64,000 nucleotides of DNA from Candidatus Latescibacterota bacterium (lineage in GTDB: Bacteria; Latescibacterota; 4484-107): assembly GCA_043804415.1 (NCBI GenBank), contig JAZDJA010000184.1, positions 7,630 through 71,629 of the forward strand. The letters run 5' to 3'. The position numbers and the translations under genes are program-made. The notes beneath the pieces were generated by a model. The model saw nothing but the letters and a program-made list of their open reading frames with translations. It did no database searches and was not told the DNA's origin. Shown in pieces: positions 60 through 20,960 of the stretch; position 1 is the stretch's first letter; the number at the start of each line of letters is the position of its first letter.

Positions 60-1406
60 ATGAAACAGTCGCTGATGAACCATCCCGAGATGGACTACGC
101 AACGGAGTGGAAGCGCACCAATCCGGATCTGAAGGTCTATATGCCGGAGGGCGAGAACGGTTTTGATGCAACCAATCAGCACTTTCTGGTTTCGCCAACC
201 CCCCGGGGCAGTTGGTTTGCCACGTGGACGCGCTCGGCCGAGGAGGGTTTCGGGAACCAGCATATCGTGTGTTCCCGCTCGGAGGACCGGGGGAGGACGT
301 GGAGCCCCCCCATCGTGATAGACGGTCCGGAGGGGGCCGATGATCCGAAGCACTGCGCGTCACTCCAGAACGAGGGTACCTGGGCAGCCCCCAAAGTCGA
401 AAGAGACTCGATCGGCATCGCGTCGTGGTGCTTCTCCATCTTTGCGCACGCGACGGGAAGGATCTACGTATTCTACCACAAAAACATTGAAAAAACTGAT
501 TTCCGCTACGACATGAGCGGCGCAATGTGCATGAAATACTCCGAAGACGACGGCAGGAGCTTTTGCGAGAACATCTATCAGTATCCCATCGAGAGCAAGG
601 CCATCGACAATCCGGATCCCACGGTCAACAAGAACTGGATCGTCTGGACCCAGCCCCATGCGATGCCGGATGGCACGGTCATTGCCCCGTATTCGAGGTG
701 GAGCAGCCCGAAGAGCCCGTGTGCCGGCGGCTCGGAAGCATTCTTCTTCCACTTCGAGAACGTCCTCACCGAGACCGATCCGGAGAAATTCCGCATCGTA
801 ACCTACCCGGAGGGACCCCACGGATTGCGTTCGCCTGCGTGCACCAAGCCCGCCTCCTCGTTATGCGAAGAGCCGGTCATCGTGGCCCTGTCCGATGGCC
901 GATTGTTCTGCATCATGCGAACCGATCACGGAATCATTTACTCGAGCATTTCATCGGATAGGGGGAAGAGTTGGACCCCGCCGATCCCCCTCATGGACAG
1001 GCCCGGGGGAGATTTCCTGCTCAACCCCGTGGTCCCCTGTCCAATCTACAAGCTGCGAGATGGCCGGTATCTGCTCCTTTACTACAACAACGACGGGTCA
1101 GCCCACGGGGGAAAGTGCCCTGCCGGGTACACCTACTTCCGCCAGAACCGCTACCCCGCCTACCTGTGCGTGGCTCGCGAGGCGCCGGGGGACAAGAACT
1201 ACCCACTCCGGTTCGGCAAGCCGAAGGTGATCGCAGATACCGAGGGCATCGAGATCGGACCGAGCGGGAGGAGGGAAGCGGCCACCTACCCCAGCCTGCT
1301 TGAGGACGGAGCGGATCGCATCCTCTTCTATCCGGACCGGAAACACTGGCTGCTCGGGAAGTATGTCACCGACGAGTGGCTTGCCGATATCGACCCGGGG
1401 AGATAA
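60..1406 (+). CDS. BNR/Asp-box repeat sialidase-like six-bladed propeller protein (exo-alpha-sialidase-like family), no signal peptide
   Basis: 448-aa ORF with Asp-box motifs (SRSEDRGRTWS, SSISSDRGKSWT) spaced as in sialidase-fold propellers; ATG at 60 preceded by a purine-rich RBS. Confidence 0.7.
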   Translation: MKQSLMNHPEMDYATEWKRTNPDLKVYMPEGENGFDATNQHFLVSPTPRGSWFATWTRSAEEGFGNQHIVCSRSEDRGRTWSPPIVIDGPEGADDPKHCASLQNEGTWAAPKVERDSIGIASWCFSIFAHATGRIYVFYHKNIEKTDFRYDMSGAMCMKYSEDDGRSFCENIYQYPIESKAIDNPDPTVNKNWIVWTQPHAMPDGTVIAPYSRWSSPKSPCAGGSEAFFFHFENVLTETDPEKFRIVTYPEGPHGLRSPACTKPASSLCEEPVIVALSDGRLFCIMRTDHGIIYSSISSDRGKSWTPPIPLMDRPGGDFLLNPVVPCPIYKLRDGRYLLLYYNNDGSAHGGKCPAGYTYFRQNRYPAYLCVAREAPGDKNYPLRFGKPKVIADTEGIEIGPSGRREAATYPSLLEDGADRILFYPDRKHWLLGKYVTDEWLADIDPGR

Positions 1407-3789: not shown

Positions 3790-3877
3790 GGAATTAAGGC
3801 TTCAGCCTTTCAACGGGAGTGGCATTCTTAGCGAAACACTACCTCCTTCGGAATTAAGGCTTTAGCCTTTCATTGGG
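3790..3877. repeat. two direct copies of a 28-bp motif GGAATTAAGGCTTyAGCCTTTCAwyGGG, each containing the palindrome AAGGCT-N2-AGCCTT
   Basis: copies at 3790-3817 and 3850-3877, about 60 bp apart, in the gap between the dehydrogenase pseudogene and the next BNR gene. Confidence 0.7.
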
Positions 3878-3925
3878 GGTGGGGGCGGGTAAACAACGAA
3901 CCGATTCAGCGACTAGGAGGAAACC

Positions 3926-5161
3926 ATGAGCAAAGACAGTGTCAAACTCACGAATTGCATTCAGACCCTTCCGACGGAGTATGTGATAGAGAGCAATGAC
4001 ACGGATGCCTCCGGGCTCTACCCGTTTTCGCGGCTGATCTCCTCGGTCTCGCCCCACGTGGTCAGACAGGAGAATCCCAAGGGTCCGCGCTACCAGGAAG
4101 GACTGAGCTACACCTTCCTGATCAATTCGGCGAAGTTTCCGGGACTCACCAAACTGGATGATGGGAGGCTGGCACTTACCCTCAGTGGAGACCTCAAATA
4201 TGAATTTGTCAACGAGGGAGACCGGCGCGAAGCACTACTCCTTTTCTCCGACGACGATGGGATCACGTGGACCCAACCCAGGCGGGTCCCGATCCACCGA
4301 AGCATCCCGATCAATCTCGGGGGCGAAAAACTGATGCTCCGAGGCAATGCCGGGCCCGCCCATGCGCACTGCATCAGTAACGATGGGGGCGCGACCTGGG
4401 GAAATGTGGAACCCATTCCCCCTGCTCCCGATGGCCGGGAGGGCTACACCGACCTGGTCCTTCATCCCCTGGTCGAAGGGGACACCGTCACCGCCATCTT
4501 TTACTCCTCAGAGCCCGGCTCCGACGACCAGTATGGCAAGCTCATCACAGACGGCAAACGACCTCCTCTTGCGCACAGTTTCATCAGGCGCTACCACCTC
4601 TCCACGAAAACGTGGGACGACCCGGTATATTTCCCCCTCGAGTGGCGCACGATCGAAGGCATGCTCACCCGCGCCAAAGACGGCAGCTTGGTGGCCGCGT
4701 TTCGCACGGACATGCCGGCCGACGTGACAGCGCCCTCGGATCACTGGGACGGGATCATGACCACCCGATCGACCGACGATGGAAAGACATGGTCCGAGCC
4801 CGCCCGTCACTTCAAGTACGGGTATATGCACACGCACCTGCTCTCCCTCCCGGACGGCCGCATCGTGCTGACCTACGCGGCCCGGATCGGCGAGTTGGAT
4901 GGGAGGAACTACCACGGCATCGAGGCGGTTGTAAGCTCGGATAACGGCGTTACGTGGGACTGGGAACACCGGTTCATTCTCTTCCGCTGGACCGATCAAT
5001 GCACCCACAGTCCGCAGTCCGTGCAGCTTTCAGATGGGAGAATCCTCACCGTGTTTCTGCACGGCAAGAACTTCACCTGGACCGATCGACCCGAGCGTAC
5101 CGTCAAAACCAATCTCTTGTACCTTGGAAACGTCACGGTGGTGATCTGGAATATCACCTGA
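3926..5161 (+). CDS. BNR/Asp-box sialidase-like propeller protein, a distant paralog of the tandem pair at 10965/12355
   Basis: Asp-boxes FSDDDGITWTQP, SNDGGATWG, STDDGKTWSEP, SSDNGVTWDW; strong RBS AGGAGG before ATG 3926; the C-terminal half is roughly half-identical to 10965..12152. Confidence 0.7.
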   Translation: MSKDSVKLTNCIQTLPTEYVIESNDTDASGLYPFSRLISSVSPHVVRQENPKGPRYQEGLSYTFLINSAKFPGLTKLDDGRLALTLSGDLKYEFVNEGDRREALLLFSDDDGITWTQPRRVPIHRSIPINLGGEKLMLRGNAGPAHAHCISNDGGATWGNVEPIPPAPDGREGYTDLVLHPLVEGDTVTAIFYSSEPGSDDQYGKLITDGKRPPLAHSFIRRYHLSTKTWDDPVYFPLEWRTIEGMLTRAKDGSLVAAFRTDMPADVTAPSDHWDGIMTTRSTDDGKTWSEPARHFKYGYMHTHLLSLPDGRIVLTYAARIGELDGRNYHGIEAVVSSDNGVTWDWEHRFILFRWTDQCTHSPQSVQLSDGRILTVFLHGKNFTWTDRPERTVKTNLLYLGNVTVVIWNIT

Positions 5162-5313: not shown

Positions 5314-6468
5314 ATGAAGATCACGAGGATTACGGCACATCTGATGGGAATCCCCGGACCGGGCGGGCACTCCCCCGCGCGCAACTGGACCTTTGTCAAA
5401 GTGGAAACCGACGAAGGCATCGTGGGGGTCGGCGAAGCAACTACCGAATGGCATGAGCAGGCAGTTGTCGCGATGATCGAGCACCATTTTGCACCCCTGT
5501 TGATCGGTCAGGATCCGACCGGAGTGACGCGTGCATGGCAGCAAATGCAGCGCTTTTTCTGGTGGCGAAACGGTGTGGTGGCCGCAAGTGCCGCCAGTGG
5601 TATCGAGCAGGCTCTGTGGGATATTACCGGCAAAGCATACGGACAGCCGGTATACAAGTTACTCGGGGGCGCCGTAAGAGATCGCGTCAGGGTGTATGCC
5701 CGAAGCGATCTTGGATTGAGCAACTACGTGGAGGAGATCAAGACTGCCAGGGAGGAAGGGATTACGGGGTTCAAGTTTGCGCCCGGCAAGCTCGTGGAGC
5801 CATTCGATGACGAAAAGCAAGTCGATGTTGCGCTTGACTTGGCTCGGGACCTTCGAAAGGCTGGTGGACCCGAATGCGACCTCATGATCGATTGTCACGG
5901 CAACTTCTCTTTGCAGGCGGCACACCGACTGATCGACCGGATCCGGGAACACAAGATGCTGTTTATCGAAGAGCCCACGAATGCGGATACACCGGGCCCA
6001 CTCGTGGCGCTTCGACGCGCCTTTCCAGACCAGCGGATCGCGGCTGGCGAACGGCTGATGACTCGCTGGGGATTTCGCGAGTGGTTGGAGACCGGAGCGG
6101 TGGATGTGATCCAGGCCGACATTTCGCACTGTGGGGGAATTGGCGAATTACTGCGGATTGCCTCTTACGCCGAGATCCACAACGTCCGGGTGGCTCCGCA
6201 CAACCCTTATGGACCTGTGGCTTTGGCGGCCAGCGCCCACGCGTGCGCGGCCATGCCCAATTTTCTGATTTTGGAGTACTGCCGTCACCGGCCCTGGATT
6301 CACGAGGTGGTCAAATTCGGCCCGCAAGTTGCGGAGGGATGCGTCCAGCTCGATGATCGCCCGGGCTTGGGAGTGGAACTGGATTGGGACTATGTGGCCA
6401 GGCACCCCTATCAGCCGCTGGACTATTGGATTTACAGCGATCGAGACAACGCCCTTCCCTGCATCTGA
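5314..6468 (+). CDS. enolase-superfamily sugar-acid dehydratase (mandelate racemase family)
   Basis: VETDEGIVGVGEAT capping-domain motif and barrel domain; RBS GGGAGCAGAG before ATG 5314; paralog of 1429..2646. Confidence 0.8.
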   Translation: MKITRITAHLMGIPGPGGHSPARNWTFVKVETDEGIVGVGEATTEWHEQAVVAMIEHHFAPLLIGQDPTGVTRAWQQMQRFFWWRNGVVAASAASGIEQALWDITGKAYGQPVYKLLGGAVRDRVRVYARSDLGLSNYVEEIKTAREEGITGFKFAPGKLVEPFDDEKQVDVALDLARDLRKAGGPECDLMIDCHGNFSLQAAHRLIDRIREHKMLFIEEPTNADTPGPLVALRRAFPDQRIAAGERLMTRWGFREWLETGAVDVIQADISHCGGIGELLRIASYAEIHNVRVAPHNPYGPVALAASAHACAAMPNFLILEYCRHRPWIHEVVKFGPQVAEGCVQLDDRPGLGVELDWDYVARHPYQPLDYWIYSDRDNALPCI

Positions 6469-6522
6469 GACCGCAAATCGTGGATCACAGGGCTGCGGCA
6501 AAAACCAAAAAGGAGGCACCCC

Positions 6523-7413
6523 ATGCCAGCTGTCAAACCGTACGACCTCAATAAGATCAGGTATTTCAAGTGGGTGGATCATCCGGAATCGATTTCCGTG
6601 GGTCCGGAAGGCGAGGCCTATACCACAGGAACCGGATTCCAGGTGTACCGGCTGGACGTGACGAACCACACCAGCGAGCAATACGCCTCGACCGCCCCGC
6701 GACGCATGCTCGGGCAGGCAGTGGATGCGGATGGAAACCTGTATTGTGCGGACATAGGGCATTATTCTTCTCCCGATATCCTCAGCAAGGTCATCCGCCT
6801 GACCCCGGATGGGAAGGAAAGCGTGTATGCCACTGCGCCAGGCGGCAAAGGTTTTCTATGTGCGAATTATCCTGCGTTCGATCGCAAGGGCAACATGTAT
6901 CTGTCGGACAGCGGGGACTGGTCAGAAGAGATAAACGGGCACATTTACAGAATCCCGCCCGGAGGGGGTGAGGCGCAGCTCTGGTTTCCCGAGCCGGTAT
7001 ACACGCCCAACGCGATCGCTTTGGATGCGGCAGAGGAGTTCCTTTATTTTGTGGACTCATTCGGGAACGGTGTCGCTCGTATTGCCATCAAGAAGGACGG
7101 CTCCGCAGGGGCGCTTGAATATGTAGTATATATGCCCCACCATATTCCGGACGGCATCGCTCTGGATGAGGAGGGAAACATTTGGATCTCCTGTCATCGT
7201 CCCGACGTCATCTACATCCTTGATATCAAGACCAGGCGCCTTGAAGTGTTTGCCGAAGACTGGCGGGGTGAAGCGCTTCGCGCGCCCACGGATGTGGCAT
7301 TTGCGGGGCCCGACCGGGATGTCCTGCTTGTGGCATCCCTTGGCCGCCACGATGTGCATCGCCTTGACCATGTCGGCGTGCGCGGTCTGCGTCTCAACAA
7401 TCCCAAACTATAG
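6523..7413 (+). CDS. SMP-30/gluconolactonase/LRE-family lactonase
   Basis: 296-aa beta-propeller lactonase-like sequence; RBS AAAGGAGG upstream; sits between a dehydratase and a dehydrogenase in a lactone-forming oxidative sugar pathway context. Confidence 0.7.
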   Translation: MPAVKPYDLNKIRYFKWVDHPESISVGPEGEAYTTGTGFQVYRLDVTNHTSEQYASTAPRRMLGQAVDADGNLYCADIGHYSSPDILSKVIRLTPDGKESVYATAPGGKGFLCANYPAFDRKGNMYLSDSGDWSEEINGHIYRIPPGGGEAQLWFPEPVYTPNAIALDAAEEFLYFVDSFGNGVARIAIKKDGSAGALEYVVYMPHHIPDGIALDEEGNIWISCHRPDVIYILDIKTRRLEVFAEDWRGEALRAPTDVAFAGPDRDVLLVASLGRHDVHRLDHVGVRGLRLNNPKL

Positions 7414-7425
7414 GAGATCCCTCTC

Positions 7426-8466
7426 ATGGATGCCCCTAAGCTGCGCTTCGCCATGTTCGGGACGGGGGTTTTCGGTCAGATCTTCGCCCCCTACATCAAC
7501 GAAGTGGCCGAACTCGTCTCCATCTGCGACCCCAGTCCCGAGGCAAGGTCAGCCTTCCGGGAAAAGACAGGTCTCGCGCTTCCGGAATTCGACAACGCGG
7601 AACGGTTACTGGCGGAAGTGGACATCGATGCCGTGGCACTGACCGGTCCGAACCACACCCATAAGCCGCTCGCACTCGCGGCCGCCCGTGCAGGCAAACA
7701 CGTTTACTGCGAGAAGACCATGGCCCCGACCGTTCCGAACTGCTGGGAGATGGTCCGGGCCTGCGAGGCCGCCGGAGTACGTCTGATGGTGGGCCACAAA
7801 CGCCGGATCAGACCTCCCTGGGCGCGGATGATCCAACTCTGCGACCAGCTCGGACCTGTGTATGCCATAAGTTCGTGCAAATATCACGACTCCAGCGGCT
7901 ACAATCCACAGGGCTGGTGGTGGCGCGATGCCGAGTGCGGGGGAACACTGCCGTTGGTGGGCGTACATACGATTGACTGGATGCGAGCCATGTGCGGCGA
8001 TGTGGAGAGCGTCAGCGCCCTGGCCGCTCCGCAGATTAACTCGCATTTCGATTACCCGGACACCATGCACGTTTCGCTTCGGTTCCGATCAGGTGCGGTA
8101 GGTGCGCTGTCCGTTTCGGCCTCGTATCCTATCCTCCAGTACCGCGAGGCCTGCAGTTCGGATGTCATCACCCGCGAGGGAGGGATGCGCATCCAGACCT
8201 ACCTCGATCATATTGACCTTTCCTATCGGCGCCGGGACGACTCCGAGACCCATTACGAAAGATTTGATGATCTGGGTCACGCTCACGCTTTCCGGAAAGA
8301 GCTGGGAGACTTCGTCCGATGGGTGACAGAAGGAGCAGAGCCCTGTCTGACATGGCGGGAAGGACTGCGGTGCGTCGAAGTCATGGAGGCTGCTCATCAT
8401 TATTCAGCAAGACAAAACGGGCGCTGGGTTGATCTTCCACTATACCCGGAGCTGGAGGCGGCATGA
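7426..8466 (+). CDS. Gfo/Idh/MocA-family NAD(P)-dependent sugar dehydrogenase
   Basis: N-terminal Rossmann motif FAMFGTGVFGQ..., EKTMAPT motif; stop overlaps the next start (ATGA at 8463-8466). Confidence 0.8.
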   Translation: MDAPKLRFAMFGTGVFGQIFAPYINEVAELVSICDPSPEARSAFREKTGLALPEFDNAERLLAEVDIDAVALTGPNHTHKPLALAAARAGKHVYCEKTMAPTVPNCWEMVRACEAAGVRLMVGHKRRIRPPWARMIQLCDQLGPVYAISSCKYHDSSGYNPQGWWWRDAECGGTLPLVGVHTIDWMRAMCGDVESVSALAAPQINSHFDYPDTMHVSLRFRSGAVGALSVSASYPILQYREACSSDVITREGGMRIQTYLDHIDLSYRRRDDSETHYERFDDLGHAHAFRKELGDFVRWVTEGAEPCLTWREGLRCVEVMEAAHHYSARQNGRWVDLPLYPELEAA

Positions 8467-10607
8467 ACGCAAAGAGGCATGTAGGAGTTGTCGTGGGAAG
8501 TGCGGCCCCGCAAGTCGAGCAGTACGCCGCCAGTCAGCTGTGCGGGTATCTGGAGAAACTTTTTGACATCCAGACGGAGCCGAGCACGTCCATCCCTCCG
8601 GATTCCGATTATCTCATTCTGGTGGGTAATCCTTCGACGAATCCCGCAGTGGAGGAAGCAACCGGGCGTAACCCCTTCCCAAAGATCGGTGATCAGGGCC
8701 TGGTGCTGCGGCACACGCTCCATCAAGAGTGCCCGGCCCTGATTGTCGGGGGCGGGAGCGCCCGCGCAACAATGTGGGCTGTTTACGAGTTGGTGGAACG
8801 GTGGGGGGTACGGTATCTGCAGCATCGCGACGTTCTCCCCGAGAATCGGGAACCGTTCGAGTTGCCTGAGCTTGATGTGGTGATCGAACCGACCCTCCCG
8901 GTTCGCTATGGGTGGGGGATCATAGACTTCGCCGGCGGATACGAATCTTGGGGTATGCGCGACTACCGCCCCGTGATCGACCAACTGGCAAAGCTCAAGA
9001 TCAACCGGCTTTTGATCGTTGTCTTTGCGTGGCAGCCGTTCCTGGATTACGAGGTCAGTGGCATCAAGCGTGAATCCGCGTGGCTTTGGTACGACTACCA
9101 CTACCCGATCACGGCGGACATGGTGGGGAGAGAATTGTTCGGGGACGCCCGGGAGTTCTGGAATCCCGACTTGCCGATGGATGCCGGCTACCAGGAATTT
9201 ACTGCGGCGGGCGAACAGCTGGTGCATAACCTGATAGACTACGCCCACCAAAGGGGCCTCGAATGCGTACTCCAGGCCAACTTACTTGAATTCCCCCCTG
9301 AGTTCAAACCGCTGCTGAAAGGCGCGCAGAAGGTTCAGCAACTGGGGGAACTGACCATTGTGCCGGGTGCGGATACAGACCTTGACGACCCCGGCCTCGT
9401 CGAACTGGGTTCCGCTGTTTTGCGGGCTACGGTGAACACCTATCCGGAAGCGGACTTCGTGGCGCTGTGGATGCAGGAGCATCGCCAGTGGACGGAAAAG
9501 ACCTATGAGGGTGCCTGGAGTGCACTGGACGCCAAATACGACCTCAGCCAGATCCGAGCCCTGGACGATGTGCTTGCCAGGGCTGGCAATCGTACCGCTC
9601 ATACCGGGGGGGCCGAACGGGCTGTGCGCGAAGTCAAAGGGGATATCACCGCGCTTTACTTCTACGATCGGCTCCTGACGGATCTGGACGTACTGAACGG
9701 CACGCGCCGTCCGGACATGAAATTCATCTACGGCGCCCTGGCCGAAGAGATGTATCCCCTGCTCCCCCGGTTGATACCGCAAGGAGGGGAGACGTTGAAC
9801 TTTATTGACTATACCCCCTCTCGCGTCCTCAATCGGCGCGAAGTCCTCAAGGATCTTCCCTGTCGGGAGATCCCGTGCAGTCTTATCTACACGCTGGACG
9901 ACGACAACATCGGCGTCGTACCGCAGCTGACGACCCCATCTCTGCACGAACTGACCCGTGACCTCATCAAATATGGGTGCGCGGGGTTTGAAATGCGGCA
10001 GCGGTATCTGGGCGATCATGATCCTGCCGTAGCCTATCTGGCCAAGGTGGCTTGGGACGCCAGCGCAACACCGGACGAGGTATACAGAGACCAGATTCGG
10101 GCGGTTTGCGGAGAAGGGTGCGTGGAGGAGATGCTGACGGCTTTCCACGAGGTGGAGGCAGTAACCGTTAACCTGGAATGGAAAAACCTGAGTTTCTCGT
10201 TCCCTGTGCCGGGGATGATGATGAAGTTCTGGAAGCCGGGGCCCATGTCCGCCGACCTGATCGAAGACCGAGCCGGCTATCGGCGAGCCCTGGAGGCAGC
10301 CCGACAAGCGCAGGAGAAGGCAACGACGTCCGGTCGTCCTTACGTGGACTACTGGGTAGGACGGCTGCAGTTTGCGGCAGGCTATCTGGACGCAGTCGAA
10401 GCCGTTACCCTTGCCGCCACAGCCGAAGCGGCGAACAACCCGGGCCAGACGCTGGAGTACACACAAGCTGCACTCGGGATGGCTCGTCAATCCATAGAAG
10501 CCTATGCCCGCGTCGCACAGGATCAAACTGACCGCGGCACGATCGCGGTGCTGAACGAATACGTCTTTCGTCCTTTGAAGGCCAAAGTGGCTGAGTTGAG
10601 GAAGTAG
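8463..10607 (+). CDS. putative glycoside hydrolase (GH20b-like N-terminal domain plus TIM-barrel; DUF4838-like), cytoplasmic
   Basis: 714-aa ORF translationally coupled to the upstream dehydrogenase; domain architecture recognised only by pattern, family uncertain. Confidence 0.45.
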   Translation: MNAKRHVGVVVGSAAPQVEQYAASQLCGYLEKLFDIQTEPSTSIPPDSDYLILVGNPSTNPAVEEATGRNPFPKIGDQGLVLRHTLHQECPALIVGGGSARATMWAVYELVERWGVRYLQHRDVLPENREPFELPELDVVIEPTLPVRYGWGIIDFAGGYESWGMRDYRPVIDQLAKLKINRLLIVVFAWQPFLDYEVSGIKRESAWLWYDYHYPITADMVGRELFGDAREFWNPDLPMDAGYQEFTAAGEQLVHNLIDYAHQRGLECVLQANLLEFPPEFKPLLKGAQKVQQLGELTIVPGADTDLDDPGLVELGSAVLRATVNTYPEADFVALWMQEHRQWTEKTYEGAWSALDAKYDLSQIRALDDVLARAGNRTAHTGGAERAVREVKGDITALYFYDRLLTDLDVLNGTRRPDMKFIYGALAEEMYPLLPRLIPQGGETLNFIDYTPSRVLNRREVLKDLPCREIPCSLIYTLDDDNIGVVPQLTTPSLHELTRDLIKYGCAGFEMRQRYLGDHDPAVAYLAKVAWDASATPDEVYRDQIRAVCGEGCVEEMLTAFHEVEAVTVNLEWKNLSFSFPVPGMMMKFWKPGPMSADLIEDRAGYRRALEAARQAQEKATTSGRPYVDYWVGRLQFAAGYLDAVEAVTLAATAEAANNPGQTLEYTQAALGMARQSIEAYARVAQDQTDRGTIAVLNEYVFRPLKAKVAELRK

Positions 10608-10751
10608 GACGGGCTCCGTGATGCACACCAACGCCCGCGTCCTCACGACCTTCCGTGATACCAGGCACTATTCGTGGCACGATGGCGCCTTCGGCCCAAG
10701 GAGCCGGAAGACGATCGGGGGGAGGTCTCGGTTGTGATTTGGAGGCCGTAG
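10608..10751 (+). pseudogene. 3'-terminal remnant (about 45 codons) of a third BNR sialidase-like paralog, fused directly to the stop of the upstream hydrolase gene
   Basis: nucleotide similarity to the last ~140 bp of genes 10965..12152 and 12355..13560 (...cctcacgaccttcc...gacgatcggg...tag), followed by the same conserved 3' tail and 5' leader. Confidence 0.6.
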
Positions 10752-10964
10752 TGGAGATTGGCGGCGGCTGAGAGGGCAAAGGGTCGCCTCACGGGAGGTC
10801 GCCGGACCGATGAGAACTGGGACGGCAAGCCCGTCTCAGTGGGACCAAATGAGCATGTGATGAGCATGTCAGGAAATGAGTGACGCCGCACGTAAATCTT
10901 TAGGCCACGGAGCGGCAGACCCGGTGAAAACCAGCGCAGCAATGCTGCCAAAGGAGAGAGGACT

Positions 10965-12152
10965 ATGACAACCGAGACCCCATCCGTACCCAACATGCAC
11001 CAGATTCCCCGCGAGCGGCTGCAACGGGACGAGCTGACCAACGAGAGTGGGAACTACCCGCGCGACTGGGTCACGTCGCCGTTGCAGGCCACGGTTATCA
11101 GGCAGAACACCCCCGCAGGGGCCAGTTACAGAGAAGCGATCGGGTACACGTTCCTGCTGTATTCGATGAAGTTCCCATCCGTCGTGCGAATGGACGATGG
11201 CCGGCTGCTGATGAATGCCAGTTACGAGGACAAGTCCGACGACAGACCGTGGGTGCTCCTCTTCTCAGACGATGAGGGCAGGTCGTGGTGTCAGCCCGCC
11301 CCGAGCCAGCTTGGGCGGTCCACTCTCATCAACCTGGGTGGCAATCGGCTCGTGTCGATAGCGTCTGCTGTGGCGCTGCGGTTCAGCGAGGACGGCGGGA
11401 AGTCCTGGAGTGAGCCGGAGACGATCCCGCCCATGTCGGACGGACGGCATTGGTGCAGCGATGTACCTTACTCTCATCTGGTGGAGGGTCAGAAGGTCAC
11501 CTTTGTGGGGTCCGTGGACCTGCATCCGGGTTACCAGCGTTGGGAGGAAAGCGACACCATCTGGACTCGCGGGGTTATGCGCGCTTACCATCTCGACACG
11601 CACGAATGGGATGAGCCTTACCTGTTCCCGATGGATTGGGGGCTCTGCGAGGGTTCCATTACGCGGGCGACGAATGGGGATCTGGTCGCAGTGTTCCGCA
11701 CTCAGCTTATGGATGGGATACGGATCACTACCGACCACTGGATGGGGCTGGCGACCACACGGTCAGTCGACGACGGCAAGACCTGGGAGAAGCCGGTGCA
11801 GGCATTCCTCTATGGGCATCACCACATGAACCTGAGGACGCTGCCGGACGGCCGACTTCTCATGACCTATGCCTCCCGGATCGGGGAGCTTGAGGGCATG
11901 CCCTACCACGGCATCGAGGCGGTGCTGAGCCACGACGACGGCAAGACGTGGGACTGGAATCGCCGTTACATACTCTTCAGAGAGCTGAGCGACCAACTTA
12001 CGCACAGCCCCGGTTCTGTAATGCTCTCCGACGGCAGCATCCTCACGACCTTCCTGCATACCAAGGGCTTCACTTGGGACGACGGAACCGTAGGCCCAAA
12101 GAGCCAGAAGACGATCGGGAATGTCTCGGCCGTGATCTGGAAGCCCTGGTAG
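10965..12152 (+). CDS. BNR/Asp-box sialidase-like propeller protein (tandem copy A)
   Basis: Asp-boxes FSDDEGRSW, SEDGGKSWSEP, SVDDGKTWEKP, SHDDGKTWDW; RBS GGAGAGAGG; about 88% aa identity to copy B. Confidence 0.75.
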   Translation: MTTETPSVPNMHQIPRERLQRDELTNESGNYPRDWVTSPLQATVIRQNTPAGASYREAIGYTFLLYSMKFPSVVRMDDGRLLMNASYEDKSDDRPWVLLFSDDEGRSWCQPAPSQLGRSTLINLGGNRLVSIASAVALRFSEDGGKSWSEPETIPPMSDGRHWCSDVPYSHLVEGQKVTFVGSVDLHPGYQRWEESDTIWTRGVMRAYHLDTHEWDEPYLFPMDWGLCEGSITRATNGDLVAVFRTQLMDGIRITTDHWMGLATTRSVDDGKTWEKPVQAFLYGHHHMNLRTLPDGRLLMTYASRIGELEGMPYHGIEAVLSHDDGKTWDWNRRYILFRELSDQLTHSPGSVMLSDGSILTTFLHTKGFTWDDGTVGPKSQKTIGNVSAVIWKPW

Positions 12153-12354
12153 AGAGTGGCAGCGGCTGAGAGGGCAAGGGATCGCCCCACGGGAGGCCAT
12201 GTCCGGACCGATGCGGATAGGGACGGCAAACCAACAGCAGTGGGAACAAATGAGTAGGACATGGAATGAGTGATGCCGCGCGCAAATCTTTAGACCACGG
12301 AGCGGCAGAGCCGGTGAGAACCGGAGCAGTCATGCTGCCAAAAGAGAGGAAACT

Positions 12355-13560
12355 ATGACAACTGAGACCCCATCCGTACCCAACATGCACGAGATTCCCC
12401 GCGAGCGGCTACAACGGGACGAGCTGACCGACGACCGAGGAAACTACCCGAACGACTGGGTCACGTCCCCGCTGCAAGCCACGGTTATCAGGCAGAACAC
12501 CCTCACAGGGGCCGGTTACAAGGAGGCGATCGGGTACACGTTCCTGCTGTATTCGATGAAGTTCCCGTCAGTCGTGCGCATGGACGATGGCCGACTGCTG
12601 ATGAATGCCAGTTACGAGGCTCAGTCCGACGAGAGACCGTGGGTGCTCCTCTTCTCAGACGATGAGGGCAGGTCGTGGAGTCAACCCGTTCCGAGCCAGC
12701 TTGGGCGATGCACGCTTACGAACCTTGGCGGCAACCGGCTCATGTCGCTTGGAACCATGCCCACCTCGGCGGCTCTGTTCGCGCTTCGGTTCAGCGCAGA
12801 CGGCGGGAAATCCTGGAGCGATCCGGAGGCGGCCCCTCCCATTTCGGACGGACGACACTGGGGCACCGATGTGCCATACTCTCATCTGGTGGAAGGCCAA
12901 AAGGTCACCTTTGTCGGGGCCGTGGACGAACATCCGGGCTACGAGCACTGGGAGGAAAGCAACAGCATCTTTACCCGTGGGATTATCCGCACTTACCATC
13001 TCGACACGCACGAGTGGGATGATCCCTATCTGTTCCCGATGGATTGGGGGCTCTCCGAGGCTTCCGTGACGCGGGCGAAGAATGGGGATCTGGTCGCAGT
13101 GTTCCGCACACAGCTCATGGATGGGATACGGATAACTACCGACCACTGGATGGGGCTGGCGACCACACGGTCCACCGACGACGGCAAGACCTGGGAGAAA
13201 CCGGTGCAGGCCTTCCTCTATGGGCATCACCACATGAACCTGAGGGCGCTGCCGGACGGACGGCTTCTCATGACCTATGCCTCTCGGATCGGGGAGCTTG
13301 AGGGCATGCCCTACCACGGCATCGAGGCGGTGGTGAGCCACGACGACGGTAAAACATGGGACTGGAATCGCCGTTACATACTCTTTAGAGAGCTGAGCGA
13401 CCAGATCATGCACAGTCCCGGCTCCGTGATGCTCTCCGACGGTAGTATTTTCACGACCTTCATGCACACCAAGGGCTACACGTGGGACGACGGCACCGTC
13501 GGCCCGAGGAGCCAGAAGACGATCGGGAATGTCTCGGCGGTGATCTGGAAGCCGTGGTAG
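12355..13560 (+). CDS. BNR/Asp-box sialidase-like propeller protein (tandem copy B)
   Basis: near-identical to 10965..12152, including the duplicated 5' leader and 3' tail. Confidence 0.75.
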   Translation: MTTETPSVPNMHEIPRERLQRDELTDDRGNYPNDWVTSPLQATVIRQNTLTGAGYKEAIGYTFLLYSMKFPSVVRMDDGRLLMNASYEAQSDERPWVLLFSDDEGRSWSQPVPSQLGRCTLTNLGGNRLMSLGTMPTSAALFALRFSADGGKSWSDPEAAPPISDGRHWGTDVPYSHLVEGQKVTFVGAVDEHPGYEHWEESNSIFTRGIIRTYHLDTHEWDDPYLFPMDWGLSEASVTRAKNGDLVAVFRTQLMDGIRITTDHWMGLATTRSTDDGKTWEKPVQAFLYGHHHMNLRALPDGRLLMTYASRIGELEGMPYHGIEAVVSHDDGKTWDWNRRYILFRELSDQIMHSPGSVMLSDGSIFTTFMHTKGYTWDDGTVGPRSQKTIGNVSAVIWKPW

Positions 13561-13729
13561 AGCGTGGCGGCGGCTGAGGCGGCATCCCCTCCTGAGTCCG
13601 CCCTGGCACGCGGGTCGAAACACAAACACCGAGGAACCGGCTTTCCCTTCGCGAAGCCCTAAAGATAGCGTCTCCAGTATAGCAGATTTCGAGATTCAGA
13701 CATTTGGTCTATAAAAGGAGGAACTGACT

Positions 13730-14914
13730 ATGAAACATTCAGAACACCCCATGGTGATCAGTACTTTCAACGATGCCCTCGATTGGTGCTGGTCCTATGG
13801 CAACTGGGGCAGCTCCGGAGTGGAGCGGCTGATGGAACGCTACCAGCAGGCCAATATCCAGCGGGTCTATTGGCGCGCGAACCAGGGGAGCCTTTGCTGG
13901 TGGCCGAGCAAGGTCGGCACTCCCTACCACGGCGTCCACTTGCGCCGTCCGCCGGATTTCGTCGGACGCGGTCAGGATTGGTATGCCGAAAGGGATGCAG
14001 GATTCGACACTCGTGCTTTCGACCAACTGGCTGTTGCTTGCAAGAAGGCCCCCGAATATGGCATCGATCTTTGGGTTTACTGGACCCCCTTCCTGGATGA
14101 TGACACCGGCGACGGATGGGCCGGCGATTGGGAATCGGCGCACCCGGAATGGTGGCGTGTGTTTCGCAACAAAGTGGTGTCAAATACCAACATGAGTTTT
14201 GCTTTCCCCGAGGTGATGGCCCACAAGCTGGCCCTGATGAAGGAACTCCTTCAGTACGATCTCAAAGGGATCCTCCTGGATTGCGTCCGGCAGCATTGTT
14301 TCCTCCTTGAGGAGGACGGCGCGGTTGTAGACGAGGATCTGGCCTACCTCGGCGGCTATGAGGGACCGATCGTAAACGCGTTCCAGGAGAAGACCGGCAA
14401 AGATCCCTTCGGGCTGCCCAATGCGGACGAAGAGTGGATTCAGTTCCGAGCGGATTACAATACGGAGTTCGTGCGCAGACTGCGTACCATCCTTCGCGAA
14501 GCGAAGCCGGAGGTCAAACTGGGCGCCATGGTGCGGGCTAAAGGCGCCAAATCGGGAAAGCGCATCCACCAGGGGAACGCCCTTCGGGAGATGCTGATCG
14601 ACCTTCCGACATGGTCCAAGGAGGGCTTGATCGACACCTTGCTGCAGGATTCTTACGCTCCCCCGGCCACAAGCGAGCAGCTGGTGGAACAACTCAATGT
14701 CTCGCGGTCTCAGGTGGACGCGCAGAAAATCGCGGTCGGTGTGGAAATGGCGCTGTTTGGAGAATGGGACCTCCACACCTTGGCTGCGGCCATGAAGGGA
14801 CCTGCTGCAGCCGGTGCCCGGGAATTTGCCTTCTATCAGGATACTTGTTTTGAGGATCTGAGCCTTCGACAGAACATCAATGCATGGAGAGAACTCGGCA
14901 AACTCGTAAAGTGA
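13730..14914 (+). CDS. putative glycoside-hydrolase-like TIM-barrel protein (GHL10-like), paralog of 15081..16391
   Basis: 394-aa ORF with an excellent RBS AAAAGGAGG; shares RVYWRA / FAFPEV / ILLD motifs with the downstream paralog. Confidence 0.5.
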   Translation: MKHSEHPMVISTFNDALDWCWSYGNWGSSGVERLMERYQQANIQRVYWRANQGSLCWWPSKVGTPYHGVHLRRPPDFVGRGQDWYAERDAGFDTRAFDQLAVACKKAPEYGIDLWVYWTPFLDDDTGDGWAGDWESAHPEWWRVFRNKVVSNTNMSFAFPEVMAHKLALMKELLQYDLKGILLDCVRQHCFLLEEDGAVVDEDLAYLGGYEGPIVNAFQEKTGKDPFGLPNADEEWIQFRADYNTEFVRRLRTILREAKPEVKLGAMVRAKGAKSGKRIHQGNALREMLIDLPTWSKEGLIDTLLQDSYAPPATSEQLVEQLNVSRSQVDAQKIAVGVEMALFGEWDLHTLAAAMKGPAAAGAREFAFYQDTCFEDLSLRQNINAWRELGKLVK

Positions 14915-16391: not shown

Positions 16392-16483
16392 AAGACACGG
16401 AAACACACCGAAAACCCATTAGCTTCCTTCAGGAAAGGATGCTCTCATTCAGTGTTCCCATGATCCACACAGGAGAGCCGTTC

Positions 16484-17641
16484 ATGTCCAAATGCCCGTA
16501 TCAGCAGTATGATCTGTGGCGCGTTGCGGAGAAGCGCACCATCTGTGACCTGGCGGACAGTGGTCCGGGCCTGGCAAAAACGCAGGCAGGCCATCTGCTG
16601 GCCTTCTTCGGCACCCCGCACGGCACGGAGCAACACGACGCCATGGCCGAAGAGGTCGCTGCCCTGGGACCTGCCCGCGTCATGATGAGCCGCTCCACGG
16701 ATGGCGGTCTGACGTGGTCTGAGCCTTTGGCGCTTCCCGCACCGAATGGACTCGATGTGCACTACGGCATGCCCAGTTGCGCCCTCGCACTGCCTTCCGG
16801 GAGGATCGTCTTGGTCGTGCGCTCCCATGAACACGGCGCGGACCGGGACGACTGGTTTTTTGCCGACCATCATGCGTACCACTCCGACGACGACGGTCAG
16901 AACTGGACCATCGGCAAGGCCATTGACCGGGCTCCTGCCGTGGGCAACCGCGCCTATGCGGGTGGGGAAATTCAGCAGATGGGTGGGATCCTGATACTCG
17001 GGTATCAGGGGACGCTCTCTCCCGAGGAGCACGATGCCAACACCTACAGTGCGTTTTTCTACCGCTCCTATGATGAGGGGCTCACCTGGGAAGATCCCTC
17101 TGTGCTCATTCGGCCGCAGGGACACTGCAAACTGGCGGCGGAACCCAGTCTCGCCGTCCTGGAGGATGGCCGATGGATCGCTCTGGTGCGCTATCATGGA
17201 CCGGAGGACTGTTGTCGCACGGTCCGCATCGAAAGCAGCGATGAGGGACGCACGTGGTCGGAGCTGGCCCATCTTTTCGTGGGCGGAATGGGCTGCCTGC
17301 GGAGCCTGCCGGGCGGGGGCTTGATGGTCAGCCACGTGACCACGGCCGGCATCGTGGTGCGCTTCAGCTACGACGAAGGCTGGAACTGGACGCGGGAGGT
17401 GATGGCCTATGACATCTGGGCGGGAGGTCACTACCGAAACGGTGCGGCCTGGAACCAGTCCGCGCTGGTGATCGACGACGACACGATCCTCTGCGGGTAT
17501 ACCTCCGTGGCGCCGGACGATCCGAACAAGGACCTCTATTATGGGGCACGAAAGGCCGAATGGGGACTTGCTGCACGGATTCGTTTCCTCCGTCGTCAGC
17601 GGGATCGATCCCTGACTGTTCCCTTGGAGGCAGGAGCGTAG
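16484..17641 (+). CDS. BNR/Asp-box sialidase-like propeller protein
   Basis: Asp-boxes SRSTDGGLTWSEP, SDDDGQNWTIG, SYDEGLTWEDP, SSDEGRTWSEL; start 16484 chosen for the AGGAGAG RBS. Confidence 0.7.
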   Translation: MSKCPYQQYDLWRVAEKRTICDLADSGPGLAKTQAGHLLAFFGTPHGTEQHDAMAEEVAALGPARVMMSRSTDGGLTWSEPLALPAPNGLDVHYGMPSCALALPSGRIVLVVRSHEHGADRDDWFFADHHAYHSDDDGQNWTIGKAIDRAPAVGNRAYAGGEIQQMGGILILGYQGTLSPEEHDANTYSAFFYRSYDEGLTWEDPSVLIRPQGHCKLAAEPSLAVLEDGRWIALVRYHGPEDCCRTVRIESSDEGRTWSELAHLFVGGMGCLRSLPGGGLMVSHVTTAGIVVRFSYDEGWNWTREVMAYDIWAGGHYRNGAAWNQSALVIDDDTILCGYTSVAPDDPNKDLYYGARKAEWGLAARIRFLRRQRDRSLTVPLEAGA

Positions 17642-19700: not shown

Positions 19701-19775
19701 GTCTTGATGAATGTTCCGGCCAAAACACATCGTGCAGTCTGCGCAGCAAATAGGTCCCCTACTGAAGGAGAAGAA

Positions 19776-20960
19776 GTGCCTGCAAACGTGAAGGTAAAGG
19801 TCGTGTCACATGGGGAATCCGTGACGGATCCGTTGGATTGCCGGATGCCCATCGTCGGGCCCGGCATCAACCAGCCGGATCCTTTTCCCGGGTATGGCGG
19901 ATTTGTGGGCTTTTCATCGCCGGCCCGGCTGAGGAACGGCACCTGGTTGGTTGGCTTTTTGGCCGGCTATTCCCACCTACACGGTCCCTCTCCGATGGAC
20001 TACTATACAGAGGAAGAGTTGGCGCATGTCCGGGAATCCGGATATGCGTTGGAGAATTACTACGCTCCCACAGGGGCCAGAGCGATGTTCGTTCGCTCGA
20101 ACGATGAGGGGAAAACCTGGTCGAAACCGGCGACGCTAATCGATACGCCCGCAAATGACGCCCATCCCTTCTTTCTGGAATTACCCACGGGCACGATCCT
20201 CTGCTCCTTCTTCACCGCGTGGGGGTGCCATCACAGAAATGATCCCGCCCTGGCCTATCACGTCCGTTTCATCCGCTCGTTTGATGGGGGATTCACGTGG
20301 GAGCAGGAACCCCGGCTCCTTCCGTCTCCTTTTCTGGCCGAGGAGACCGAGGCCCCCATGTTGCACCTCGAGGAGGGTGCGGTGCTGATTGCCGTTGATG
20401 GAGATCCCCGCGAAGGCGGGCCGCAACAGGCAGCGATATTCCGCACCATGGATCAGGGGGACACATGGGAACTCCTCTCCATCGTAAAGGCCGCCCATGA
20501 ACTGTCGGAGCCGGCCATCGCCCAATTGCCCGACGGCCGACTGGTTATGATCGCGCGTCCCAAAGGAGCGATCTCCTGGTCCGAGGATTGCGGACGGACG
20601 TGGACGCAGCCCCAGAGCTTTGGAATACCGATGTACGCCCCCAGCCTGCAGGTGTTGCAGGACGGAAACCTGCTCTGCCTGCACGGATCATACAGCCCTG
20701 GGCATGGCGCTCTGCGCGCCATTTTGAGCCCGGACGGCGGAAAGACATGGCGGGCACCGGCGCCGGACCATGGGTTCCTGGTGGATCGCACTTACGGGTA
20801 TGGCAAGGGAATGCTCCTTCCAGATGGCTCCCTGTTTATCTCCTATATGAGCACAGGCGGCCATGCTCCCCAGGATGCCCGAACCAACTGCCTCTGGTCT
20901 GTACGCCTGCGTGTCCGCGCCGACTGCGCCGGCATCGATCTTTTGCCCGCAGCCCGGTAA
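19776..20960 (+). CDS. BNR/Asp-box sialidase-like propeller protein
   Basis: Asp-boxes SNDEGKTWSKP, SFDGGFTWEQEP, TMDQGDTWELL, SEDCGRTWTQP, SPDGGKTWRAP; GTG 19776 follows an AAGGAG RBS (an in-frame ATG at 19704 is the alternative). Confidence 0.6.
   Translation: MPANVKVKVVSHGESVTDPLDCRMPIVGPGINQPDPFPGYGGFVGFSSPARLRNGTWLVGFLAGYSHLHGPSPMDYYTEEELAHVRESGYALENYYAPTGARAMFVRSNDEGKTWSKPATLIDTPANDAHPFFLELPTGTILCSFFTAWGCHHRNDPALAYHVRFIRSFDGGFTWEQEPRLLPSPFLAEETEAPMLHLEEGAVLIAVDGDPREGGPQQAAIFRTMDQGDTWELLSIVKAAHELSEPAIAQLPDGRLVMIARPKGAISWSEDCGRTWTQPQSFGIPMYAPSLQVLQDGNLLCLHGSYSPGHGALRAILSPDGGKTWRAPAPDHGFLVDRTYGYGKGMLLPDGSLFISYMSTGGHAPQDARTNCLWSVRLRVRADCAGIDLLPAAR

Follow-up and report, generated by a model that had tools for sequence, protein, structure and literature searches.

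A tandem array of sialidase-fold BNR_2 genes with a probably deletion-truncated leftmost unit in a Latescibacterota sugar-degradation cluster

Tandem arrays of paralogues that carry pseudogene relics, as in CAZyme clusters subject to birth-and-death evolution and unequal crossing-over, are the closest described counterpart of the locus analysed here, which lies in a 64-kb stretch of DNA (hereafter the window, meaning the whole stretch that was analysed) from an uncultured Latescibacterota. The locus resembles such arrays in its head-to-tail units of constant length with common internal junctions, its intact members under purifying selection, the truncated and frameshifted member at its edge, and local multiplication of the family. 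Nothing essential is different, the sole oddity being a breakpoint 0-4 nt from a neighbouring gene’s stop codon. Six BNR_2 genes lie within 21 kb of the window, and the family is therefore expanding here. GH33-type genes are reported to be enriched in sponge Latescibacteria and Poribacteria, and to have been transferred laterally among sponge-associated bacteria including Latescibacteria (PMC8163846). We consider it very probable that the locus is a tandem array of BNR_2 genes in a large sugar-degradation cluster, its leftmost unit truncated by deletion. The array is real but ordinary gene-family growth and decay, with little import beyond annotation: it documents that Latescibacterota sialidase-fold genes multiply through local tandem duplication and also decay, and such expansion and decay fits the enrichment reported for the sponge lineages (PMC8163846).

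Copy 1 (10965..12152) and copy 2 (12355..13560), on the forward strand like the other parts of the locus, are open reading frames of 395 and 401 aa. The initial annotation had put the identity of these two genes at about 88%, and with its coordinates upheld the measured values are 1056/1188 (88.9%) for the coding DNA and 344/396 (86.9%) for the protein, with a single 6-codon indel. The tandem duplication with conserved leader and tail that it described is also genuine: self-alignment recovered both the repeat and the fragment where it had placed them, the spacers are 83% identical and the tail is present three times. It had pictured a gene with a separate 160-bp leader, and this leader is indeed conserved, but the repeated unit is instead the whole ~1.4 kb, comprising the gene, a 15-nt tail and a ~200-nt spacer, with a start-to-start spacing of 1390-1408 nt according to the repeat finder. 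Head-to-tail copies with a constant period and a common novel junction identify a tandem segmental duplication.

The spacer between the fragment (copy 0, described below) and copy 1, at 10752..10964, is homologous over its full length to the spacer between copies 1 and 2, at 12153..12354. The alignment has 164/197 identities (83%) and 21 gap positions, one gap being an 11-nt tandem duplication at 10849-10870 that can be read from the sequence. Motif positions place the tail at 10758-10772, with the junction next to it, and the leader at 10802-10964, which contains a small stem-loop, GCAGCAATGCTGC, at 10936-10948 and a ribosome-binding site, GGAGAG, at 10953-10958. The corresponding elements of the second spacer are the tail at 12156-12170, again with the junction next to it, the leader at 12203-12354, a stem-loop with one G-U pair, GCAGTCATGCTGC, at 12326-12338, and a ribosome-binding site, AGAGAGG, at 12343-12349. 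The tail, GTGGCGGCGGCTGAG, begins at 10758, 12156 and 13564 and occurs nowhere else in the 64-kb window; shuffled sequences gave a mean of 0.36 matches, and 0/100 reached three. Two leader motifs of ~27 nt are likewise confined to these two spacers (0 expected), and from CCGGACCGATG onward the leader is also found upstream of the orthologue P0002 in loci L001-L004. An intrinsic terminator scan between the genes found none on the plus strand (minus-strand hits only, at chance level), nor was a sigma-70 promoter found there with an E. coli-type consensus, which may not suit this phylum; the genes are thus probably read in one long transcript, in which the spacer would give each copy its own translation start. 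A small open reading frame at 10758..10883, with a counterpart from 12156 and an apparently conserved peptide, was rejected as coding because substitutions are, by eye, even over codon positions and because L002-L004, compared with L001, have a 1-nt insertion in this frame.

The junctions are informative about the former size of the array. The sequence GGCTGAG/AGGGCAA (the slash marking the junction) follows both the fragment and copy 1, which have the internal junction ...GGCTGAGAGGGCAA... in common, and it is absent after copy 2 and in the single-copy L001. Copy 2 and the orthologue in L001 have a different, terminal trailer in common. In the window this trailer spans 13561..13650, with the tail at 13564-13578 and then sequence like that of L001 and L002; its homology is to the sequence that follows the single-copy orthologue in these two loci, and not to the internal junction, with GGCTGAGGCGGCATCCCCTCCTGAGTCCGCC...AAACACCGAGGAACCG after copy 2 pairing with GGCTGACGCGGTACCCACTCCTGCGTCCGCC...AAACACCGATCAACCG of L001. 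Because the fragment ends in copy 1’s tail-to-spacer junction, the best reading is a former array of at least three units.

What appears to be left of the third unit is copy 0, at 10608..10751, which represents the final ~46 codons of a BNR_2 gene and is 75-76% identical to the 3’ ends of the two copies. The initial annotation had noted a third copy of about 45 final codons plus the tail right after the upstream TAG, and had named similarity below random expectation as grounds for dropping it. The similarity is far above that level: 10612-10747/10749 matches the last ~46 codons of copy 1 at 103/137 positions and those of copy 2 at 106/139, with local scores of 96 and 105 where shuffled sequences average ~19.7 (sd 2.3-2.4), giving z values of 32 and 38, and tblastn aligns the fragment with residues 350-388 at 51% amino-acid identity (E = 2e-7). 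Only residues ~350-395 are left, with no start codon; 2 nt are inserted near 10718-10719, and a TAG at 10749-10751 comes one codon early, in place of the last Trp codon. After frame correction the translation TGSVMHTNARVLTTFRDTRHYSWHDGAFGPRSRKTIGEVSVVIWRP aligns to SPGSVMLSDGSILTTFLHTKGFTWDDGTVGPKSQKTIGNVSAVIWKPW, each running to its stop. Homology is thus combined with loss of the start, a frameshift and a premature stop, as in truncated relics, and because of the insertion and the early stop we read the fragment as a pseudogene relic. It starts 0-4 nt past the TAG of gene 8463..10607. Leftward, into the 3’ end of that gene, no similarity was both significant and consistent (the score of the 150 nt preceding the boundary in copy 1 was matched by 2/500 shuffles, that of copy 2 by 30/500), and tblastn found no further copy-1-like fragment elsewhere in the window, the 5’ part of copy 0 included. 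We rejected the idea that readthrough or frameshifting fuses the upstream gene to the fragment, as the fragment lies in another frame and the in-frame continuation ends after 16 codons. Positions 10608-10751 should be flagged as a remnant that gene callers do not join to its neighbours.

The upstream flanking gene (8463..10607, 714 aa), which lies outside the repeat, is intact and belongs to a widespread but uncharacterised family of hydrolase-like proteins. It has no Pfam match and no sequence relative was found for it in the PDB; its homologues number 536 at E <= 1e-5, most of them ~720-740 aa long, and some match PF03648 weakly. Its C-terminus, ...VAELRK, agrees with the ends of the homologues, which marks the stop as natural, and the gene closes a block of MR_MLE, SGL, GFO and hydrolase genes whose four-gene order is kept in a relative, L007, the contig Ga0394675_057471. 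This only syntenic relative ends 115 nt past the stop of the gene. Those 115 nt contain GGCGGCGGCTG and were rejected as evidence of the ancestral state, since their similarity to the window’s spacer is not significant (15/500 and 189/500 shuffles reach the observed score).

From these features we propose that a ~1.4-kb unit, consisting of the gene, about 155 nt of leader that include a ribosome-binding site of its own, and a short tail, underwent head-to-tail duplication, likely by unequal crossing-over, giving at least three units of which two remain intact under purifying selection. A single deletion or rearrangement, with its left end just past the upstream gene’s stop codon, would have removed the leader and about 350 codons of the leftmost unit, and the remaining 144 nt would since have decayed as a pseudogene. 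The deletion of copy 0 is what we infer here, no orthologous locus with an intact copy 0 having been found. That the breakpoint lies 0-4 nt from a stop codon is a coincidence for which the deletion does not account.

Of the two origins that the initial annotation had allowed for the missing part of a three-copy array, deletion and overwriting by insertion of the hydrolase gene, the former is favoured and the latter did not hold up, while the count of at least three units did. Insertion of the upstream gene or its block into copy 0, overwriting the 5’ part, would explain why the fragment begins right at that gene’s stop codon, and since the two protein families are functionally linked, with natural fusions in P0147 and P0239, bringing them together could have been favoured. 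However, the four-gene block ending in this gene keeps its order in L007, and no 5’ portion of copy 0 is present beyond the block or elsewhere in the window, so this scenario needs an insertion and a further deletion; we regard it as quite unlikely. Given the natural stop and the conserved block, deletion or rearrangement of copy 0 appears more likely than insertion. An assembly artefact, in which strain variants were placed in tandem or 10607/10608 is a chimeric join, has to be weighed because the source is a metagenome-assembled genome, each copy is known from a single contig and related contigs break nearby (L007 ends 115 nt past the hydrolase stop, and L032 begins 59 nt ahead of the gene). 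A collapsed or expanded repeat would have identical copies, however, and here copies 1 and 2 differ by 11% and a 6-codon indel, the spacers by 17% and an 11-nt indel, and the fragment, with its pseudogene lesions, by 25% from both copies. Strain variants are also not assembled with two distinct diverged junctions, and the same subfamily occurs as a tandem pair on an independent contig. Because the three copies differ by 11-25% and carry indels, an artefact seems exceedingly unlikely.

It is also conceivable that the array arrived already truncated, by transfer or translocation of a segment starting in copy 0, with the unit behaving as a movable cassette. The same leader, gene and trailer lie beside toxin-antitoxin modules in an unrelated setting (L001-L004), where the module content of L001 is not that of L002 and both have a 126-nt repeat containing a hairpin; in L032, P0005 is likewise flanked by the leader’s last 59 nt and the ~20-nt tail, and the gene downstream of it there is a different one; and the reported lateral transfer of GH33-type genes (PMC8163846) points the same way. 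As a compact, promoter-proximal unit in varied contexts, one of them a toxin-antitoxin-rich region with a repeated hairpin (L002), it resembles integron-type gene cassettes, but its tail motif is gene-specific and the unit in the window sits in a metabolic operon. The surroundings of the array, moreover, showed no recombinase, no terminal repeats and no target duplication, this BNR_2 gene is the only one with which the tail and leader motifs occur, and flanks would also stay conserved if rearrangements cutting into a gene’s own control regions are lost; on balance, arrival as a truncated segment is rather unlikely. The hairpin near the ribosome-binding site that the initial annotation pointed out is present, with a 5-bp stem, yet a regulatory role for it is unsupported. 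Were the spacer a structured cis-regulatory RNA, the hairpin or a long-range tail-to-leader helix would control translation of each copy. In keeping with this, six gene lineages retain the ~35 nt before the ATG (with GCAGY-NNN-GYTGC and GGAGAG), even those in which other sequence stands in place of the remaining leader (L005, L006), all stem changes are G-U compatible, and in the minimum-energy folds of both spacers (z -2.1 and -1.8 for the whole spacer) the tail TGGCRGC is base-paired to GCTGCCA immediately ahead of the ribosome-binding site. Against it, no Rfam family matches the spacers, a scan of 10400-13900 at E <= 10 giving one chance hit on the opposite strand inside copy 2 (17.4 bits, gathering threshold 100); hairpin energies are ordinary for the composition (z -0.43, -0.67, -0.62 and +0.10, with only L032 at -1.75); and the hairpin shows no compensatory double change, three of three wobble-compatible transitions being expected by chance about 1 in 8 times. 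Leader identity (81%, 79%, 77%) is in line with third-codon-position identity of the genes (79%, 84%, 75%), which argues against extra constraint, and beyond the ~35 nt before the start codon the leader evolves at about the synonymous rate; distinct leader sequences of full length number three. We find RNA control of this kind highly unlikely, and hold it highly improbable, too, that the ~1.45-kb unit is a self-contained movable cassette or that the complementary tail and pre-ribosome-binding-site segments (TGGCRGC/GCTGCCA) form a helix that insulates or processes each copy in a polycistronic transcript. If either of these last readings were true, a specific mechanism would lie behind the array in place of plain unequal crossing-over.

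We return to the tandem array and its history. Between copies 1 and 2 dN/dS is 0.20 and dS 0.34, values that point to purifying selection on both full copies. Copy 1 is closer to the orthologue P0002, from another metagenome (90%), than to copy 2, and the quartet-informative sites divide into 34 that group copy 1 with P0002, 13 that group copies 1 and 2, and 5 for the third grouping, so the duplication predates the split of the copy 1 and P0002 lineages and is old. The sites grouping copies 1 and 2 cluster at the 5’ end, which is only suggestive of gene conversion, an unproven mosaic (runs test, p = 0.18). Most differences between the copies lie in propeller blades two and three, to which the 6-residue loop is added, and for this reason they probably have slightly different substrate preferences, or serve dosage only. 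Another contig holds a tandem pair of the copy 1/2 subfamily; scans of genome and metagenome contigs with copy 1 returned no orthologous array, only distant relatives at 25-40% identity.

The products of the array are putative cytoplasmic sialidase-fold proteins, as part of the overall explanation that we hold to be very probable. Both pass the gathering threshold of Pfam PF13088, BNR_2 (31.4 bits), with 51.3 bits for copy 1 and 49.5 for copy 2. Copy 1, named ‘sialidase family protein’ at NCBI, is a 100% match to P0001 from a Candidatus Latescibacterota metagenome-assembled genome, and copy 2 matches P0003 from the same NCBI contig; the 6-residue loop insertion of copy 2 (GTMPTS) is common to P0005 and P0006. 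NCBIfam yielded no informative family. The translation contains four Asp-box-like motifs of the form S-x-D-x-G-x-x-W (SDDEGRSW, SEDGGKSW, SVDDGKTW and SHDDGKTW), which agree with the S-x-D-x-G-x-T-W repeats that define Asp boxes, and the Pfam BNR repeat model matches at 30.5 bits (cut-off 27). An AlphaFold2 model of copy 1 is all-beta (pLDDT 91.8, pTM 0.91), and Foldseek places it among the solved six-bladed sialidase-type propellers, with probability 1.0 and TM 0.52-0.56 for sialidases and a best match, at TM 0.60, to 5hx0 (Dfer_1899), a protein of unknown function. Both copies keep 35/35 invariant columns of a 42-sequence family alignment, and R46, R245, R305, E229 and D257 are invariant in the 42 homologues. 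We tentatively take R46, R245, R305 and E229 to be compatible with a sialidase-like active site, whose catalytic set in GH33 enzymes comprises an arginine triad, a Tyr-Glu nucleophile pair and an Asp acid/base; the invariant H347 presumably sits where a Tyr might be expected.

The BNR_2 score, the four Asp-box-like motifs and the propeller placement are features that the array proteins have in common with GH33 exo-alpha-sialidases such as those of Porphyromonas gingivalis (8t26/8gn6). They differ in having only ~15% identity to solved sialidases (phmmer E = 3e-7 over 233 residues), in that the closest structure is 5hx0 and in the lack of a signal peptide evident by eye. Their neighbours, too, are not those of a classic sialic-acid pathway but enolase-superfamily dehydratases (MR_MLE), an SGL lactonase, a GFO/IDH/MocA oxidoreductase and GHL10, and the genes scanned in the region included no nan genes. 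A more useful by-product of the analysis is the link between BNR_2 and the hydrolase-like family, adjacent here and fused elsewhere, which could guide biochemistry on both. In a Poribacteria genome the hydrolase gene has no BNR neighbour, unlike in the window, where it is directly followed by BNR_2 genes. In P0147 and P0239 the ~720-aa hydrolase-like family and BNR_2 form one polypeptide, with the BNR domain at either end; these fused BNR domains belong to another subfamily, as they are only 27-29% identical to copy 1.

The region 10608-13580 consists of repeats of one ~1.4 kb unit, and the tandem repetition is real and highly significant. The two BNR genes located there by the initial annotation are both present as copy 1 (10965..12152, 395 aa, P0001) and copy 2 (12355..13560, 401 aa, P0003), and their proposed identity of ~88% agrees with the 88.9% measured pairwise on coding DNA (86.9% on protein); one 6-codon indel is the sole difference in gene length. 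A repeat finder gives a start-to-start spacing of 1390-1408 nt and places a partial third copy at 10612-10798. Over their full length, the spacers that precede the two genes (10752-10964 and 12153-12354) are homologous (83% identity); the repeated stretch takes in the entire spacers and not just the leader described earlier as ~160 nt. Most of the difference in spacer length is due to an 11-nt tandem duplication (ATGAGCATGTG ATGAGCATGTC) at 10849-10870, absent from the second spacer and from L001, a contig bearing P0002, the ~90% orthologue of copy 1. Within the 64-kb window, two leader cores are found only in these spacers, and the tail motif GTGGCGGCGGCTGAG, correctly noted as shared, occurs only at 10758, 12156 and 13564 (shuffle mean 0.36 matches).

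The truncated third copy, copy 0, is borne out by alignment of 10612-10749 to the last ~46 codons of the intact genes (103/137 for copy 1, 106/139 for copy 2). Local scores lie 32 and 38 SD, respectively, above dinucleotide-preserving shuffles, far from the below-random similarity across 10608-10751 that would have spoken against a third copy. By tblastn the piece corresponds to residues 350-388 at 51% amino-acid identity. It is a pseudogene relic, because it bears a 2-nt insertion (GATCGGGGGGAGG vs GATC--GGGAATG in the intact genes), has a TAG at the site of the last Trp codon, and lacks a start codon and upstream coding part. Its identity to both intact copies and to the orthologues P0002 and P0005 is uniformly 75%, the pattern expected if an old array member had decayed neutrally. 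The same junction, GGCTGAG|AGGGCAA...CACGGGAGG...CCGGACCGATG, follows both the relic and copy 1, and another, GGCTGA(G/C)GCGG(C/T)A...CTCCTG.GTCCGCC...AAACACCGA, follows copy 2 as well as the orthologue that L001/L002 carry in single copy. The presence of the internal junction twice means that the array once held at least three units, in line with the three-unit array first proposed.

The relic breaks off ~0-4 nt from the TAG of the upstream hydrolase-like gene (8463..10607), and in alignments against shuffles its similarity does not extend into the 3′ end of that gene. The simpler route to this arrangement would be one deletion, or one rearrangement junction, that removed the 5′ part of copy 0. 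The initial annotation also offered insertion of the hydrolase gene, overwriting this part, but that reading is not supported: the order MR_MLE, SGL, GFO/IDH/MocA, hydrolase is identical in the syntenic contig L007 (hydrolase 72% identical) and tblastn finds the 5′ part of copy 0 nowhere else in the window, so insertion requires an additional second deletion. The hydrolase gene is also complete, because the C-terminus of its product (...VAELRK) falls where its homologues end. An assembly artefact is unlikely since the three copies and both junctions are clearly diverged and carry indels. Local deletion and arrival of the array at the locus in already truncated form both fit the data: L007 ends 115 nt past the hydrolase stop, with no significant similarity to the window in those 115 nt, and scans of public contig collections with copy 1 gave distant relatives only.

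Both intact copies have been retained under purifying selection, with dN/dS of 0.20 at dS of 0.34, and each keeps all 35 columns that are invariant in an alignment of 42 family sequences. Non-synonymous change is densest at codons ~100-225, the stretch that surrounds the loop insertion of 6 residues, and lowest in the C-terminal third. The duplication predates the split from the P0002 lineage, because at the nucleotide level copy 1 is 91% identical to P0002, found in other metagenomes, and 89% identical to copy 2, the loop insertion of copy 2 is shared by the homologues P0005 and P0006, and 34 of 52 quartet-informative sites group copy 1 with P0002, vs 13 that group it with copy 2 and 5 for the third grouping. 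The 13 sites concentrate near the 5′ end, which hints at a gene-conversion patch (runs test p = 0.18, not significant). Tandem arrangement recurs in this subfamily, because the contig of the 71% identical P0007 (JGI 3300075153) bears an independent pair of adjacent BNR_2 genes (6329-7504 and 7759-8940; 391 and 393 aa; ~255-nt spacer) of the same subfamily, adjoining an alpha-L-fucosidase. Assemblers tend to break contigs at repeats, and the end of L007 just past its hydrolase and the start of L032 59 nt before the BNR start of P0005, both at or close to the spacer/leader region, hint at tandem BNR arrays in those organisms too. On the minus strand of L007, 1436-1873 matches residues 229-363 of copy 1 by tblastn (33% identity, E = 5e-17); the ORF called there is just 124 aa with no Pfam match, and the locus is a candidate for a further truncated BNR_2 relic.

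The leader from CCGGACCGATG (10802; 12203) to the ATG also precedes P0002 in L001-L004, among toxin-antitoxin genes, and its last 59 nt precede P0005 in L032. Leader identity follows third-codon-position identity of the attached genes (81% and 79% for copy 1 vs copy 2; 79% and 84% for copy 1 vs P0002 in L001; 77% and 75% for copy 2 vs P0002 in L001), so by this measure no added constraint is visible over the full leader. L005 and L006 keep only ~35 nt before the ATG, with GCAGC-NNN-GCTG(C/G) and GGAGAG, a stretch best read as a translation-initiation region. A regulatory role suggested for the 5-bp hairpin is not supported: it varies by G-U changes only, its folding energy is ordinary for composition in 4/5 lineages, and an Rfam scan of 10400-13900 returned no family. 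Whole-spacer folds (z -2.1 and -1.8) pair the tail with a pre-RBS element, and 3/3 variable positions of this helix are single transitions, an outcome compatible with chance (~1 in 8). Scanning between the genes gave no plus-strand terminator and no sigma-70-like promoter. A small spacer ORF was rejected as it is not conserved as coding. L002, another bearer of the copy 1 orthologue (90%), has a 126-nt direct repeat (1-126, 3827-3952 and 5560-5685; also in L001; 75-94% identity; hairpin ACCTCCGGCCTGTCACGCCGGAGGT) between toxin-antitoxin modules (VapBC, DUF433/DUF5615), whose unequal number in L001 and L002 suggests a variable, cassette-like island.

The array is an ordinary tandem gene-family expansion with decay in a carbohydrate-degradation cluster, which agrees with the enrichment and transfer of GH33-type genes reported in Latescibacteria and Poribacteria (PMC8163846). 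P0001 and P0003 share one 75-kb contig in a Candidatus Latescibacterota MAG, are named 'sialidase family protein' and 'exo-alpha-sialidase' in NCBI's annotation, and exceed the Pfam BNR_2 threshold. AlphaFold2 models copy 1 with confidence (pLDDT 91.8) as an all-beta protein, and Foldseek groups the model with six-bladed sialidase-type propellers, with 5hx0, a protein of unknown function, on top (TM 0.60) and a Porphyromonas sialidase next (TM about 0.55, 15% identity). Searches by sequence alone reach PDB sialidases at no better than E = 3e-7. We therefore call both copies sialidase-fold BNR_2 proteins with a putative sialidase role.

No Pfam match was found for the hydrolase-like product (~714 aa) and no PDB sequence relative for its family; its 536 homologues (mostly ~720-740 aa) come from Poribacteria, Planctomycetota and others, and a subset matches GH67-N weakly. 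Natural fusions (locus L009 8001-11396) place BNR_2 at the C-terminus in P0147 (1131 aa) and at the N-terminus in P0239 (1111 aa), their BNR parts being 27-29% identical to copy 1. Such Rosetta-stone fusions suggest that the two proteins work together, and the adjacency of the hydrolase and BNR_2 genes in the window probably reflects a functional partnership. Six BNR_2 genes lie on the same strand in 21 kb (60..1406, 3926..5161, copies 1 and 2, 16439..17641 and 19704..20960), of which 3926..5161 shares 45% identity with each of copies 1 and 2. Interleaved are two enolase-superfamily (dehydratase) genes, two GHL10 genes, and lactonase-like, GFO/IDH/MocA oxidoreductase, URO-D-like and apiosidase-like genes. 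By gene content, window 60-20960 is a large same-strand cluster for sugar degradation in which the family has expanded strongly in place. Just 5′ of 3926..5161, GGAATTAAGGCTTYAGCCTTTCA occurs twice, 60 nt apart (3790-3813 and 3850-3873), each copy including the palindrome AAGGCT-NN-AGCCTT; the paired elements may be an operator or terminator pair.
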